Shown here piece by piece: positions 36,917 to 40,407 of a DNA stretch of 61,717 nucleotides; position 1 is the stretch's first letter, and every line of letters begins with the position of its first letter. Below the pieces are notes generated by a model. That model saw only the letters and a list, made by a program, of their open reading frames with translations, was not told where the DNA came from and did no database searches. Location of the stretch: assembly GCA_039683415.1 (NCBI GenBank), contig JBDKRL010000010.1:1-61717 (forward strand), given 5' to 3'. The translations under genes and the position numbers were made by a program. Source of the stretch: Clostridiaceae bacterium (GTDB taxonomy: Bacteria; Bacillota; Clostridia; Christensenellales; CAG-138).

Positions 36917-39520
36917 ATGAAGACGTTTCACACAAAGAGCGGAACCTATGCCCTGTGTGCGCTGCACATCACGTGCGTGCCGTATGAGAAGGAAAAGAAC
37001 GAAACGCCCAACATCGCAAAGGCGATTTGCGAGGATGCGTATTACCTCGGCAATGGCGACGGACGGCTCTCGATTGAGCTTTTGCGTGTCGCCGGGACGA
37101 CCGCCGGGAACCCCATCTGCCATCTTTTAGTTCTGCGCTGTTTTAACGAAACGCAAAGCGGTTGCGAGCAAGTTGCAGCCGCGTTTTGCGAGAGCATAAA
37201 AAAACGGCTGACCGTCAGCGGCTACCGCTTTGGTGAAATGTCCTTTGAGGTGTTTGCCGGGCTCTTTCGCGCGCTGAACCGAACTGCGGTCTGGGCGCTC
37301 ACTAAGCAGGAGATACGCGAATGCGAGTGCATGTCGCCGCGCACGTATGTGTCGCTGCCGGTGCTTTGCGGTTCGCTGGATTTCAGCGGCGTTTACCAGG
37401 CGCTCGACGGATCGGGATGCGCCGTTTCGATTCATGCCACGGCAAGCGCGCTTAAGCCTGCGGAATACCAGGCGGTGCAGCAACTTTATGCGGACTGCAG
37501 CCGCGCAGTCGAAGGGACGCTTGCAGCGGGACAGGCTCCACGGGACAGCCTTGCTTCGCTGGCGAGGGAGCGCTGGCAGTACTGCGTCCATAAGGCACAC
37601 GGGCCGATGTTTTTTGCCAATTTTGTCGTATATGGGCCGCCGGAAGCGGCAGCCATCGTCGTTTCACGGCTTCGCGGAAGCTTCATCGAGATGCATACGG
37701 ACGCACCAGCTTCGCTAAGGGCGATCGACATTTCCAAAGCGGATATTTCCCGTGTGTATGATCAGCCCTGGCAGCTGGAACGGGCCGTAGCGGAGCGCTG
37801 TCTGCTGCAGGGGTATTCTCTTTCAAAAACGGCGGAAACGAGCGGGTTGATCCGGCGGTTTTCTTCCGAGGAAGTGGGAGCCGTTCTGGCGCTTCCAAAG
37901 GCGGGACGCGCGTACTGCGGCGTCGGGAGCAACGCGTTTTCTCTCCTCAAGCCGGAGGAACTTTTGGATAAAGAACTCACCGCGGCGGGCGCTGGTACGG
38001 TACAGATCGGCCAGTCTGACGGGGGCAGAACCATCGCGCTTCCCATGAAGGATTTTCTACTCCACATGTCCGTATACGGAAAGACTGGGGTGGGCAAGAC
38101 AAAACTTTTACAGTCCATCGTCGAACAGCTTGCGAAAAACGGCGTATCCGTGCTCGTGCTCGAACCGATAAAACGCGAATACCGGACTCTTGTACGCAGC
38201 GCGAACGCGCGCGTGTTTACGGTCGATTCATCCACGGCGCCGTTTGTGCTTAATCCGTTTTTGGTACCCAAAGGAGTAACGCTCGCGCAGTACAGGCCGC
38301 ACCTGCTGAACGCATTCAGCGCGGCCTTCAGCATGCCGGATCCGCTGCCCAGTCTCTTCGGCACCGCCATAACGGAGGCTTACGCCCTCAATGGCTGGAA
38401 GAGCAGCAGCAAATCGGCCGATTCTGACGTGACCGTGTTCGGCCTCTGGGAATTCGTTCAAGTCTTTCAAAAGGTCGTGCAGAACAGCGCGTACAGCCCG
38501 GAAATCAAAGGCAACATGACAAGCGGCGGTACCTTTCGCCTGCTTTCGCTGATCGATCGCTGCCGTAATACTTTTGAAACGATTCATTCGACCGATGTAT
38601 TGGACCTAATCAGCGGCCAGGTTGTGCTGGAACTGGGGCGGCTGGAAGGAGAGCAAAAGTGCCTTGTTGCTGCGCTGACGCTGATCTCCATACTCTCGTA
38701 TCTGCGAACCGTGCGGGAGAGCGGCACACCGCTCACCAATGTAATTTTGATGGATGAAGCGCACGTGCTGCTGGATCCAACGGCTTCCCGAACGGAGGAA
38801 GGCAGCGCTGCGGGGGAGACGATGGAGAACCTGATTGTAAACCTGATTGCGGAAGTTCGTGCGCTGGGCGTCGGCGTAATCTTCGCGGACCAGTCGCCTA
38901 CCCGCGTCGGCGGGAATCTGCTCAACAACACGGATACAAAGATTATATTCCGCCTTACAGGAGACGAAGCACAGGCGATTGCCCACGGAATTGGGCTTGA
39001 CGAAGAGGAGACGCGCATGCTGCCACTACTGGAGATGAGGCAGGCACTGCTGGTCAACCACACGCTTCGTACGCCGTTGGGTATTACAACGTTACCTCGA
39101 GCGGAGACGAAGCCGGTTACCGACGAGGAGCTGACATATCGGCAGCAGGCGTATCTTCAGAGCCGCGCAGAGTTATACCGCCCGTTTCGAGAGTGTGAAT
39201 TATTCGGCTTGTGCGAGCAGGACTGCAAGTTTTCCGTGCGGGACTGCGCCGCGGCACGCAGCATACGGATGTTTTCTGAGCGCGCCAAGCACATCCGTAC
39301 GGCGGACGAACTCAGGCAGCATCTTCTTTGGATTCCCGCATCGCTGATCAAGCAGGGAAACAACCCGAAAGACCCGGATTTTCCGCGCCTGTGCGGATGT
39401 GTCGCGCTTCACGTATACCGACAGGCTTCTATGAAGCTGGGTGAGCGAATTCAGGACAAAGCGCTGCGTGGGATACTTGCGGACTATATGCAGCAGGCAG
39501 GGAGGAGCGGGATTGCATGA
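36917..39520 (+). CDS. HerA/FtsK-superfamily ATPase (DUF87/HerA-like) with ~430-aa N-terminal domain of unknown function
   Basis: Walker A VYGKTGVGKTKLLQSI followed by VLVLEPIKREY (HerA-type D/E-x-H-G-E-Y-like), and Walker B ILMDEAHVLL (DEAH, HerA-type rather than the VirB4 DEAW). GGAGAGGAGA RBS. Confidence 0.7.
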   Translation: MKTFHTKSGTYALCALHITCVPYEKEKNETPNIAKAICEDAYYLGNGDGRLSIELLRVAGTTAGNPICHLLVLRCFNETQSGCEQVAAAFCESIKKRLTVSGYRFGEMSFEVFAGLFRALNRTAVWALTKQEIRECECMSPRTYVSLPVLCGSLDFSGVYQALDGSGCAVSIHATASALKPAEYQAVQQLYADCSRAVEGTLAAGQAPRDSLASLARERWQYCVHKAHGPMFFANFVVYGPPEAAAIVVSRLRGSFIEMHTDAPASLRAIDISKADISRVYDQPWQLERAVAERCLLQGYSLSKTAETSGLIRRFSSEEVGAVLALPKAGRAYCGVGSNAFSLLKPEELLDKELTAAGAGTVQIGQSDGGRTIALPMKDFLLHMSVYGKTGVGKTKLLQSIVEQLAKNGVSVLVLEPIKREYRTLVRSANARVFTVDSSTAPFVLNPFLVPKGVTLAQYRPHLLNAFSAAFSMPDPLPSLFGTAITEAYALNGWKSSSKSADSDVTVFGLWEFVQVFQKVVQNSAYSPEIKGNMTSGGTFRLLSLIDRCRNTFETIHSTDVLDLISGQVVLELGRLEGEQKCLVAALTLISILSYLRTVRESGTPLTNVILMDEAHVLLDPTASRTEEGSAAGETMENLIVNLIAEVRALGVGVIFADQSPTRVGGNLLNNTDTKIIFRLTGDEAQAIAHGIGLDEEETRMLPLLEMRQALLVNHTLRTPLGITTLPRAETKPVTDEELTYRQQAYLQSRAELYRPFRECELFGLCEQDCKFSVRDCAAARSIRMFSERAKHIRTADELRQHLLWIPASLIKQGNNPKDPDFPRLCGCVALHVYRQASMKLGERIQDKALRGILADYMQQAGRSGIA

Positions 39521-40407
39521 TGGATTGGGACTGCGCGGACGATTATTCCGCCGGTACGGCTTCGGATATGCCCGCCGAACGGCTGGCGGACACGGCGGAC
39601 GGCTGGGCGGAAACAGACCTGCCCGGCGCGGAGGAAGCGGATCTGCCGCCGGAAGGGGATTCGGCCTGGGACTGCGCGAACAGTTCCGCCGGTGCGGCGT
39701 CGGATATGCCCACCGAACGGCTGGCGGACACGGCGGACGGTTGGGCGGAAACAGATCTGCCCGGCGCGGCGGAAGCGGATCTGCCGCCGGAAGGGGATTC
39801 GGTCTGGGACTGCGCGGACAGCACCGCGAAAGCCGCAGGAGATGCCGCGGATGATACGGGGGATGCTCTTTGGGATACGCCGCGGACGGAAGCCGAGAAG
39901 GCCGCCGATTATATCCGCTCCTTCAGTGGATTTGAAAAAGCCGCCGACTATGTCGAGCGGCACTACGCGGGAGATGAGTTCGTTCCCGGAGACGTGATTT
40001 CCATTACGACTCGAAATCAGGAACTGGAGGGAGGCACGAGCAATCAGGGCGTCCCCTTTTCTCGCCGAGAAGTCAAGCTGGATGACGGTCTGGTGTTGGA
40101 GGGCGTTTTTCCGGAGTTCAATTCGCTCCATCATGTGGAACTGGGCGACGCGGCGAAGGACATGAACCGTTATCAGCAGTTTTCCGCCTGCAAAGCCGAC
40201 TTTCAGGATCACCTGAGCGACAATCGAAACGCTCTTGAGAAACTCACGCTGGGGGACATGGAGCGTCTGAGCGAATCGAACCAAGCCACTCCAAGAGGAT
40301 ACACCTGGGACCATAATCCGGAAACGGGAGCCTTCGACCTTGTTCCATCCGGTGTGCACAGGACAACTGGGCATACGGGCGGCAACGCTCTTTATGGAAA
40401 AAGCTGA
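39517..40407 (+). CDS. Acidic tandem-repeat protein with C-terminal HNH/EndoVII-fold nuclease-like domain (WHH/AHH/SHH toxin-class signature)
   Basis: ATGA start/stop overlap with the HerA-like gene. C-terminal ...YTWDHNPETGAFDLVPSGVHRTTGHTGGN fits the [W/A/S]HH...LV..H...HTGG pattern of HNH-type toxin nuclease domains. The N-terminus has 2.3 copies of a 47-aa acidic repeat. Confidence 0.5.
   Translation: MMDWDCADDYSAGTASDMPAERLADTADGWAETDLPGAEEADLPPEGDSAWDCANSSAGAASDMPTERLADTADGWAETDLPGAAEADLPPEGDSVWDCADSTAKAAGDAADDTGDALWDTPRTEAEKAADYIRSFSGFEKAADYVERHYAGDEFVPGDVISITTRNQELEGGTSNQGVPFSRREVKLDDGLVLEGVFPEFNSLHHVELGDAAKDMNRYQQFSACKADFQDHLSDNRNALEKLTLGDMERLSESNQATPRGYTWDHNPETGAFDLVPSGVHRTTGHTGGNALYGKS
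39527..39811 (+). repeat. 141-bp tandem direct repeat x2 (plus partial third copy) inside a CDS
   Basis: GACTGCGCGGAC...GGGGATTCGG(C/T)CTGG repeated at ~92% identity. It leaves both strands open; the antisense ORF 39484-40374 is an artefact of this. Confidence 0.8.

Follow-up and report, generated by a model that had tools for sequence, protein, structure and literature searches.

Results

An ATPase gene coupled to a nuclease gene

Two adjacent genes, one for a P-loop ATPase and the other for a nuclease-like protein, lie at positions 36917-40407 of a 61,717-nucleotide stretch of contig JBDKRL010000010.1 from a Clostridiaceae bacterium (assembly GCA_039683415.1); this whole stretch is referred to here as the window. 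The pair and the gene cassette at whose 3' end it lies were analysed computationally, following a preliminary description made from the sequence alone. Both open reading frames (ORFs) proved to be real as described. They and their domains, with lengths in amino acids (aa), are as follows.

36917-39520, + strand: P-loop ATPase ORF, 867 aa
36917-37951, + strand: ATPase N-terminal domain, aa 1-345, predicted VirB4/TrwK N-terminal-domain fold
37952-39121, + strand: ATPase core, aa ~346-735, HerA/VirB4 clade of the FtsK-HerA superfamily, catalytic motifs all intact
39122-39520, + strand: ATPase C-terminal helical domain, aa 736-867, with invariant Cys760, Cys766, Cys770 and Cys828 (invariant columns and AF2 model)
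39517-40407, + strand: nuclease ORF, 296 aa
39517-39870, + strand: acidic, variable N-terminal region of the nuclease protein (composition, alignment)
39871-40407, + strand: predicted nuclease module, Colicin-DNase/WHH ββα-Me domain, aa 119-296, with W264, H266, H281, H286 and N290 (Pfam, above cut-off)

A ribosome-binding site, GGAGAGGAG, is located 6-14 nucleotides (nt) 5' of the ATPase start, and a second site, GGGAGGAG, 10 nt 5' of the nuclease start. The ATGA overlap noted earlier was found as claimed: the ATPase stop codon (TGA, 39518-39520) overlaps the nuclease start codon (ATG, 39517-39519; gcATGAtgg). Related loci, designated by L numbers, were gathered through ATPase homologues, nuclease homologues and a scan of GTDB species genomes. 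The spacing between the two genes is -4 nt in the window and in L004, -8 in L001, L008, L009 and L011, -17 in L002 and 0 nt in L012. Translational coupling links the ATPase gene to the nuclease gene, and the overlap or abutment of the two is kept across loci.

The ATPase carries a Walker A motif (GKTGVGKT, aa 388-395), the EPIKREY element (416-422), a Walker B motif (MDEAH, 612-616) and an ADQSP motif (657-661), all four of which are invariant in an alignment of 13 homologues. The protein scores above the Pfam cut-offs for DUF87 (33.4 bits against 23.2) and HerA_C (30.7 against 22), it matches the PADLOC HerA model at 1.8e-19, and its family profile retrieves the HerA of S. solfataricus (Sulfolobus) from the PDB at 8.9e-13. 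The proposal of a HerA-type ATPase is borne out for the RecA-like core, with its Walker A, DEAH-like Walker B and DUF87 signature. The ATPase falls under all the NCBIfam HerA equivalog cut-offs (HerA_antiphage, 34.8 against 800 bits; helicase_HerA, 18.3 against 970; HerA_Thermprot, 23.4 against 800) and under that of the VirB4 model TIGR00929 (20 bits; cut-off 643.1), and neither CagE_TrbE_VirB nor AAA_10 gave a Pfam match at E<=0.01.

The N-terminal domain, for which no assignment had been offered, was examined by structure prediction. In the AF2 model of the whole ATPase (pLDDT 87, pTM 0.80) the first 345 aa form an α/β domain whose only strong structural neighbours are the N-terminal domains of VirB4/TrwK. 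The top nine Foldseek matches were all TrwK/VirB4 chains, which stood alone at E<=4e-4, and EccE of the type VII secretion system (T7SS) was the next neighbour. For the core, the VirB4 C-terminal domain was near the top of the structural matches, and anti-phage HerA-clade ATPases were among the neighbours. HerA proteins have a HAS-barrel domain at their N-terminus; the predicted structure of the N-terminal domain here contains no such barrel. As the Foldseek neighbours are VirB4/TrwK N-terminal domains, the ATPase is modelled as having no HAS barrel and the VirB4 architecture, an N-terminal domain followed by a C-terminal ATPase domain, and it fails the sequence models of both HerA and VirB4. 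A profile of the N-terminal domain matched only 113 cluster representatives among 1.84 billion, and in nearly all full-length matches the domain stands at the N-terminus of proteins of 780-915 aa.

The C-terminal domain contains the invariant cysteines C760-x5-C766-x3-C770...C828 (window 39194-39400), and this four-Cys domain is possibly a metal site (Zn or Fe-S). A distantly related ATPase (898 aa, 27% identical) is encoded in L006 (7641-17294) near an SPFH protein with several zinc ribbons; that locus has no WHH nuclease or ubiquitin-like genes, and ScmC and PqqD genes lie upstream. From this locus, the association of the ATPase with SPFH proteins may be older than the cassette described below.

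The nuclease protein passes two Pfam models, Colicin-DNase (59 bits, cut-off 25, aa 194-288) and WHH (43 bits, cut-off 25.1, aa 255-295), in agreement with the WHH-class C-terminus that had been recognised from the sequence. H266, H281, H286 and N290 are invariant in six orthologues, and W264 is present in five of the six. A PDB search with the nuclease profile returned no relevant relative. By its family matches, the C-terminus is assigned to the WHH/Colicin-DNase domains of the HNH/EndoVII superfamily, with the histidines conserved.

The N-terminal 128 aa of the nuclease protein contain 35 D+E against 5 K+R. Within this region lies a 138-nt tandem duplication (39546-39821; 2.0 copies, 94% identical), which is missing from the orthologues; these have in common only an acidic N-terminus, short and variable in length. 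The duplication is recent, private to this contig, and the source of the "acidic repeat" in the preliminary description. Of that feature the acidity is conserved and the repeat is not.

Conservation of the nuclease domain, and genes that follow it

The nuclease module is 45-63% identical over 17 mapped loci (tblastn), except L019 at 34%, and is the best-conserved protein in most loci, the ATPase being 37-57% identical. In L034 and L035 the nuclease module is 62% identical to that of the window whereas the partner ATPase is only 30% identical. At least 220 nuclease homologues were found. On these identities the nuclease domain does not appear to be polymorphic. A variable acidic N-terminus joined to a conserved nuclease domain is the reverse of the polymorphic-toxin pattern, where the tips vary and the trafficking N-terminus is conserved; the Pfam scan revealed neither LXG nor PT-type nor any further trafficking domain.

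As stated before, no immunity-like gene follows the nuclease. The 146-nt gap between the nuclease and ClpP genes holds no credible ORF, only a 29-aa TTG ORF with no counterpart in the other loci. No conserved immunity gene was found 3' of the nuclease across the loci, and the downstream gene varies (ClpP, Lon-like, AAA or unrelated). An ORF of 66-68 aa ending in ...KGGL(V/I)(L/V) is present between nuclease and ClpP in L004 (13446-13646), L011 (10937-11143) and L033 (10937-11143), and not in the window gap.

The pair is the 3' end of an eleven-gene cassette

The pair had been likened to two-gene modules such as HerA-Sir2 and HerA-DUF4297. Instead, it forms the 3' end of a cassette of eleven genes. 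Nine genes precede the ATPase gene on the same strand with intergenic distances of -26 to +49 nt. These nine, with TM for transmembrane, are listed in order; the first, for the ubiquitin-like (Ubl) protein, is sometimes in tandem in other loci.

29643-29960, + strand: ubiquitin-like protein, 105 aa, C-terminus ...EDGPVA-AC (PDB profile matches)
30000-30434, + strand: membrane-anchored protein with N-terminal TM helix, Pro-rich linker with PPLPxR and C-terminal zinc ribbon (alignment)
30409-31716, + strand: E1-like adenylating enzyme, ThiF fold, 435 aa (Pfam, PADLOC, PDB profile)
31766-32359, + strand: probable E2-like (UBC-fold) protein, 197 aa, C-terminal PPLPxR tail (alignment, weak profile matches)
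32401-33405, + strand: JAMM/JAB metallopeptidase, deubiquitinase-like, 334 aa (motif, PDB profile, ribosome-binding site and orthologue starts)
33419-34369, + strand: transglutaminase-like cysteine protease/transamidase, 316 aa (Pfam Transglut_core, 1.8e-11)
34412-35551, + strand: SPFH/Band-7 scaffold, 379 aa, PPLPGR motif, C-terminal zinc ribbon (Pfam Band_7_1, 5.1e-20)
35568-36218, + strand: polytopic membrane protein, 3-4 TM helices, Pro-rich tail ending in PPLPEKR (alignment, hydrophobicity)
36250-36897, + strand: protein with zinc-ribbon N-terminus (CPRCG...CDQCG), helical domain and C-terminal TM stretch (alignment, hydropathy)

The eleven-gene order was seen by tblastn mapping in 16 loci with ATPase identities of 37-57%; the E2-like gene in L015 and the polytopic membrane gene in L017 were below the tblastn threshold. 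The complete set of Ubl, E1, E2-like and JAMM genes precedes the ATPase-nuclease pair in most loci, and SPFH and small membrane proteins accompany the pair upstream in every locus examined (~20).

Three loci have other front ends. In L023 (89-14124) the order is NACHT, transglutaminase-like, SPFH, two membrane proteins, ATPase, nuclease and an AAA-AAA-Lon protein, and there are no Ubl, E1, E2 or JAB genes. In L034 (1301-11428) and L035 (1527-11281) the order is SPFH, small protein, SPFH, small protein, TPR-TIR, ATPase and a WHH protein of 426-475 aa, with no ubiquitin module. Because the Ubl module is swapped out in these loci, the constant core is taken to consist of ATPase, nuclease, SPFH and small proteins, of which several are predicted membrane proteins in the main cassette. 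The exchangeable front ends (Ubl cascade, NACHT or TIR) belong to types found in immune systems. Immune-type genes are thus associated with the pair, NACHT or TPR-TIR inside the variant cassettes and others as neighbours: a NACHT (STAND) protein is encoded directly 5' of the cassette in L001 (1-2169), and a kinase-TIR protein and a reverse transcriptase nearby in L008.

The scan of 185,579 GTDB species genomes gave 11 full-length matches, one cultured isolate included; this count rests on two peptide patterns and is a lower bound. The hosts are abundant gut Firmicutes (Oscillospiraceae, Ruminococcus, Butyricicoccaceae and others), with one copy, locus L016, in the cultured isolate "Bacterium 210820-DFI.6.37" (JAJCKG010000001.1, ~90.1-100.6 kb). 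The cassette is rare and confined to gut Firmicutes. The extreme rarity suggested by the first ATPase search (14 relatives) was rejected as the product of a word-index limit, since the nuclease homologues, the genome scan and the representative search show otherwise. A scan of 24.5-44.4 kb for promoters and terminators gave counts equal to the shuffled expectation.

The ubiquitin-like module

The profile of the Ubl orthologues matches polyubiquitin in the PDB at 1.4e-14 (summed over the repeats), di-ubiquitin at ~3e-4 and the UBL domain of Ddi1 at 1.3e-3; all but one of the 60 matches listed are ubiquitin or UBL domains. The orthologues end in ...G-x-V-A or ...A-G-V-A, or a few residues beyond (VA-AC in the window). 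From these profile matches and ends, the first small gene is assigned to a ubiquitin-like protein, with a predicted β-grasp fold and a putative reactive C-terminus. Two head-to-tail Ubl copies are present in one ORF in L011 (305-868) and L016 (2843-3406), joined by ...NAGVA-ADE... and ending in ...NAGVA, and four consecutive Ubl genes are present in L015 (1862-3400). The tandem arrangement resembles that of eukaryotic polyubiquitin precursors, and the tandem and extended forms imply proteolytic trimming. A gene for a YbjN-like protein, similar to chaperones of the type III secretion system and having an acidic C-terminus, lies just 5' of the Ubl gene in L011 (1-185), L013 (1941-2717), L016 (1996-2784) and L033 (1-185).

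The E1-like enzyme matches Pfam ThiF at 7e-28 and the PADLOC Cap2 E1-E2 model at 1.4e-14, and its profile retrieves TcdA (1e-11), UBA3 (2e-9), UBA1 (8e-9) and Cap2 (8e-9) from the PDB. It has an invariant Cys192 in TSCSGPQ, two CxxC pairs (Zn-binding) and an extra C-terminal zinc-ribbon domain. These features identify a predicted E1 adenylation domain with its catalytic Cys.

The E2-like protein has an invariant Cys110 in G-x-Q-C-x-D-x-W, following GYP-x-x-KP-x-V-x-Y. Seven of the 14 weak PDB matches to its profile are E2 enzymes, including four of the top five, and one is an RWD domain (0.06). In the alignment with UBE2A the catalytic Cys coincides with the invariant one (E 0.16, weak), and hhalign comparison with a hand-entered UBE2D2 sequence gave the same register at E 0.011. 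The gene is fused to that of E1 in L009. The Pfam E2 models (Prok-E2, UQ_con) do not match the 197-aa protein, and for this reason it is considered only a probable E2.

The JAB ORF opens at 32215 and would overlap the preceding gene by 145 nt; the orthologue starts and a GGAG site indicate ATG 32401 as the likely start. The protein contains GHTHPDLGVFFSGPD, the canonical JAMM motif H-T-H-P-x6-S-x-x-D (HxHx7SxxD), which is invariant. Its profile matches Rpn11/PSMD14 in the PDB at 7e-4, and Prok-JAB is matched by four of six orthologues. The protein is accordingly classed, by motif and profile, as a putative JAMM deubiquitinase.

Membrane proteins, SPFH scaffold and a shared proline motif

In the membrane-anchored protein encoded at 30000-30434, the TM helix spans aa 4-22 and CP..RN..Q.FW..C..GH.F is invariant. 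The transglutaminase-like protein has a Cys154-His186-Asp201 triad that is invariant in the alignment. The C-terminus of the SPFH protein is rubredoxin-like, and the PPLPGR motif stands at ~aa 347, before this zinc ribbon. The protein encoded at 36250-36897 has invariant Cys/His residues and a TM stretch at ~aa 146-164, counted as one helix by hydropathy and probably two from the alignment. Pfam and NCBIfam gave nothing for the Ubl protein, the TM zinc-ribbon protein, the E2-like protein, the two downstream membrane proteins, or the 259-aa and 251-aa proteins described below.

A short motif, PPLPx(R/K), recurs in five protein families of the cassette. The E2-like and polytopic proteins carry it at the C-terminus and the JAB protein at the N-terminus; the remaining two are the TM zinc-ribbon protein and the SPFH protein. 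Counted over the window and the L001-L009 orthologues, it has 25 occurrences where residue shuffles give an expectation of 0.38, and none in the other seven families. PPLPx(R/K) has the form of a class II SH3 ligand. Its recurrence in five different cassette proteins suggests one common docking partner.

Accessory genes and flanks of the window

Genes on either side of the cassette recur in part of the related loci and are regarded as accessories; VirD4/TraG-like ATPase "a" is assigned to an extended form of the system.

25606-27354, + strand: VirD4/TraG-like ATPase "a", 582 aa, no predicted TM helix (Pfam T4SS-DNA_transf 2.2e-43, TraG-D_C, TrwB_AAD_bind)
27399-28442, + strand: helical-repeat (TPR/RNPP-like) protein, 347 aa (weak Pfam RNPP_C/TPR; orthologues upstream in L004 and L009)
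28458-29213, + strand: 251-aa protein, accessory or adaptor (tblastn)
40554-41150, + strand: ClpP-family serine protease (Pfam CLP_protease, 7.7e-58)
41167-41946, + strand: 259-aa protein, always between ClpP and the VirD4-like gene (synteny; only a weak holA-like match)
41922-43805, + strand: VirD4/TraG-like ATPase "b", 627 aa, no TM helix (Pfam T4SS-DNA_transf 1.7e-38; synteny)

On the 5' side, the VirD4-like gene is in the same place in L009 and L010, and in L009, as in the window, the VirD4-like gene, the TPR protein and the 251-aa protein precede the cassette. By tblastn, the 251-aa domain corresponds to the C-terminal region of the NACHT ORFs in L001 (1687-2082) and L023 (2585-3046), and it could be an adaptor between sensor and core.

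On the 3' side, ClpP is no chance neighbour: ClpP, the 259-aa protein and the TM-less VirD4-like ATPase follow the nuclease in 8 of the 16 loci as well as in the window; in L019 ClpP and the VirD4-like gene are present in another order. An AAA-AAA-Lon(_C) protease is encoded 3' of the cassette in L001 (13573-16830), L016 (16190-19147, - strand) and L023, and other AAA+ proteins downstream in L008 and L012. In most loci the cassette is succeeded by a protease of the ClpP or Lon type. Since the downstream VirD4 copy always follows ClpP and the 259-aa protein, one idea is that it acts together with ClpP.

The flanks of the window contain genes of sugar metabolism, transport and two-component systems. 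No genes for a relaxase, VirB6, VirB8, a pilin, a hydrolase or a type IV secretion system (T4SS) channel were found in the 61.7-kb window. In the window and the flanks of the related loci taken together, VirB3, VirB6, VirB8, hydrolase and relaxase genes were not seen, and only TM-less VirD4-like genes were present. As the rest of the window is ordinary metabolism without T4SS or relaxase genes, the VirD4-like genes are attributed to the system and not to an integrative and conjugative element (ICE); an ICE origin was rejected on the same grounds.

PADLOC 2.0, run on 19 proteins, named no system: the ATPase matched HerA, mad8 and DndH only, and the E1 matched Cap2-E1 only. Minor matches were mad8 for VirD4-like ATPase "a" (3.6e-7) and a weak PDC-S67 (0.0015) for the TPR protein.

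Discussion

A proposed immune effector at the end of a membrane-associated cassette

The favoured explanation is that the ATPase-nuclease pair serves as effector at the end of a large immune (conflict) system, associated with the membrane, in gut Firmicutes; a probability of roughly one half is assigned to it. The effector role is argued from the conserved gene overlap, the HerA precedents, the structural neighbours of the ATPase, the invariant histidines of the nuclease, the lack of a downstream immunity gene and the non-polymorphic nuclease domain. The immune role is favoured because modular front ends (NACHT, TIR, Ubl) are typical of immune systems. The preliminary description had proposed the pair as a defence effector core; this is plausible and is strengthened by the occurrence of the same pair behind NACHT or TPR-TIR genes. 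In anti-phage systems, Sir2 or nuclease effectors are reported to be bound in complexes with HerA-clade ATPases (PMC11291478, PMC11514289, PMC11472057), and the Sir2-HerA and DUF4297-HerA complexes are the nearest functional precedent.

Several points weigh against this interpretation. The E2 assignment leans on weak similarity (E 0.01-0.2), the PADLOC matches are limited to generic HerA and Cap2-E1, and the flanks of the window are ordinary sugar-metabolism genes with no defence island. The receptor of the PPLP motifs, the targets of the Ubl, the ATPase-nuclease contact and autoinhibition by the acidic region are inferred. Secretion could also explain the combination of a VirB4-like motor, VirD4-like ATPases and a toxin-class nuclease.

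Alternative explanations

This last possibility, a T4SS-derived exporter of an antibacterial nuclease toxin with the acidic N-terminus as export signal or pro-region, is the main rival, and it is considered unlikely. The translocon would be built from the VirB4-like ATPase, the VirD4-like coupling ATPases and the small membrane proteins, and would carry the WHH/Colicin-DNase protein into competing cells. Such an exporter would account for the VirB4 N-terminal-domain fold and the VirB4 CTD among the top core matches, for EccE as the next structural neighbour, and for the several membrane proteins in the cassette. The window and L009 have a VirD4-like gene on each side of the cassette, one follows it in 8 of the 16 loci, and WHH and Colicin-DNase are, by their Pfam descriptions, classic secreted-toxin domains. 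However, a secreted toxin would be at odds with the lack of a conserved immunity gene 3' of the nuclease, with a nuclease domain that is highly conserved instead of polymorphic, and with the failure to find LXG, PT-type or other trafficking domains in Pfam. The window and flanks hold no VirB6, VirB8, hydrolase or relaxase genes, the VirD4-like proteins have no TM helices and are missing from half of the loci, and the partners of the pair are modules of the cytoplasmic immune type (NACHT, TIR, Ubl cascade, Lon).

Rather less probable still is a system for membrane stress or protein quality control, in which Ubl tagging, SPFH and ClpP/Lon would make up a bacterial "ubiquitin-protease" pathway acting on damaged membrane proteins, served by the ATPase as extractor or unfoldase, the nuclease being secondary (e.g. 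a suicide module). The Ubl, E1, E2-like and JAMM set with its Rpn11-like similarity, a constant ATP-dependent protease partner, the SPFH/membrane trio reminiscent of the SamGHI stress sensor, and the protein-moving members of the FtsK/HerA superfamily (EccC, VirB4) among the structural neighbours are all consistent with such a role. It leaves unexplained, however, why an invariant, catalytically intact nuclease is coupled to the ATPase in every locus and why the Ubl module is replaced by NACHT or TIR. The sparse and patchy distribution (at least 11 of 185,579 species; 113 clusters among 1.84 billion) is that of a conflict system and not of a housekeeping one.

A self-contained two-gene HerA-nuclease defence pair among unrelated neighbours, as translational coupling, the PADLOC HerA matches and the known two-gene HerA-effector systems might suggest, is very improbable, as the pair was never seen alone (all of the ~20 contexts examined have upstream SPFH and small membrane proteins), 16 loci keep the full eleven-gene order with short or negative intergenic distances, and the N-terminal domain is unlike that of defence HerAs. 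Equally hard to sustain is an origin in a conjugative element, be it as remnant or as cargo, whose VirB4 would be the ATPase and whose coupling proteins the two TraG-like genes: a VirB4-like fold, VirD4-like Pfam matches and serine recombinases near L011 are outweighed by a 61.7-kb window with no relaxase, VirB6/B8, pilin or hydrolase, a TIGR00929 score of 20 bits against 643, an L009 cassette adjoining the housekeeping genes hrcA-grpE-dnaK, and a gene content and order fixed over distant loci, unlike decaying elements.

A possible mechanism

As part of the favoured interpretation, the following mechanism is proposed. VirB4 docks on VirB3/VirB8; the VirB4-like N-terminal domain could in a like manner dock the oligomeric ATPase on a membrane platform. 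This platform would be formed by SPFH together with three small membrane proteins, of which two carry zinc ribbons, by analogy with SamG/SamH/SamI of B. subtilis, where the SPFH protein SamI is recruited by the two membrane proteins SamG/SamH (bioRxiv 10.64898/2026.02.06.704340). PPLPx(R/K) would recruit the E2-like protein, JAMM, SPFH and two membrane proteins to one partner. The E1/E2 cascade would then conjugate the Ubl through its ...G-V-A C-terminus to an invader protein or to a component of the system, after extensions or tandem repeats are trimmed by the JAMM or the transglutaminase-like protein. In type II cyclic oligonucleotide-based antiphage signalling systems (CBASS) a C-terminal Ala is the conjugation site, and Cap2 links the cyclase to membrane-bound PspA, and YdjI co-purifies (PMC11153139). 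Conjugation of the Ubl, or elsewhere a NACHT/TIR sensor, may license the ATPase-bound nuclease to degrade DNA. Until then the nuclease would be restrained by complex formation, by its acidic N-terminal region, or both, and the accompanying ClpP or Lon-type protease might remove the acidic region. The acidic N-terminus and the protease partners are proposed as off and on switches because there is no immunity protein. A more specific form of the interpretation is offered only tentatively. It would be an undescribed class of immune system in which a eukaryote-like ubiquitin cascade, comprising a Ubl similar in sequence to ubiquitin and encoded in polyubiquitin-like tandem form, an E1, an E2-like protein and an Rpn11-like JAMM peptidase, is tethered through PPLP motifs to an SPFH platform and controls a T4SS-derived, VirB4-like motor and its WHH nuclease through tagging and ClpP/Lon proteolysis. 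Such a bacterial "ubiquitin-protease" switch would set off DNA degradation upon infection.

Relation to known systems

The HerA-effector pairs (Sir2-HerA/Nezha, DUF4297-HerA) and the archaeal HerA-NurA differ from the cassette pair in several respects. The cassette ATPase has a VirB4-like N-terminus and, at its other end, an additional Cys-rich domain; a WHH/HNH nuclease takes the place of Sir2, a Cap4-like protein or NurA as effector; and the pair is never stand-alone, being embedded in a membrane-associated cassette of 6 to 11 genes. The cassette ATPase also differs from the VirB4/TrwK ATPases of T4SS, as it lies outside their sequence models, is accompanied by no other T4SS component, and is coupled to a nuclease and a Ubl cascade.

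Known families of bacterial ubiquitin-like conjugation are type II CBASS, Bil I/II and Bub (PMC11601603, PMC10557695). The Bil type I/II systems are alike in having separate Ubl, E1, E2-like and JAMM genes in conflict-type neighbourhoods, and Ubl proteins whose C-terminal extensions or multiple β-grasp units have to be trimmed (PMC10557695, PMC11601603). The Bil order is Ubl-E2-DUB-E1 (PMC10557695), whereas that of the cassette is Ubl-(TM protein)-E1-E2-JAB, and no Bil chain is present among the 60 E1 profile matches listed of 63. The cassette Ubl ends in ...G-V-A, and the cassette E2-like protein has a conserved Cys and no Pfam Prok-E2 or UQ_con match. PADLOC gave no match for the cassette Ubl, E2-like and JAB proteins, and no BilABCD operon was recognised. 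Bil has four genes and no separate effector; the cassette has seven further conserved genes including the ATPase-nuclease pair.

Resemblance to type II CBASS Cap2/Cap3 lies in the best PADLOC/NCBIfam defence matches of the cassette E1, which are Cap2-type, in the E1-E2 fusion of L009, in the C-terminal Ala end, and in the Bacillus conjugation target PspA, which is found at the membrane together with the SPFH protein YdjI (PMC11153139). Unlike CBASS, the cassette has no CD-NTase and no cyclic-nucleotide-activated effector, and its modifier is a genuine ubiquitin-like protein. The cassette nuclease shares both Pfam models and the conserved His residues with WHH/Colicin-DNase polymorphic toxins, but it lacks an immunity gene, a recognised trafficking domain and polymorphism, and its partner is always the ATPase. 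SamG-SamH-SamI (YdjGHI) likewise has a Band_7_1-type SPFH gene beside two small membrane-protein genes; the corresponding two cassette membrane proteins match no curated family and there is no PspA gene, so this likeness is organisational only.

Searches of the literature, including broader full-text searches, gave no description of Ubl conjugation with SPFH, transglutaminase-like, HerA/VirB4-like or nuclease partners. The cassette thus combines known kinds of conflict systems, the Ubl-linked and the NTPase-nuclease ones, and is itself likely undescribed in the literature searched.

Protein conjugation in bacterial immunity has been shown only recently, with CBASS Cap2/3, Bil and Bub. As one copy of the cassette is present in the cultured isolate DFI.6.37, direct testing is possible. 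If the immune interpretation is true, bacterial Ubl systems would gain a new kind of partner, as none described to date connects to a separate nuclease effector, an SPFH membrane platform or a secretion-type motor. The cassette would also be an example of Ubl tagging that controls an effector, maybe through an ATP-dependent protease, a logic otherwise eukaryotic or that of Pup, and a VirB4-type ATPase would have been exapted outside type IV secretion. PPLPx(R/K) would be a new linear motif which may organise a bacterial multi-protein system.

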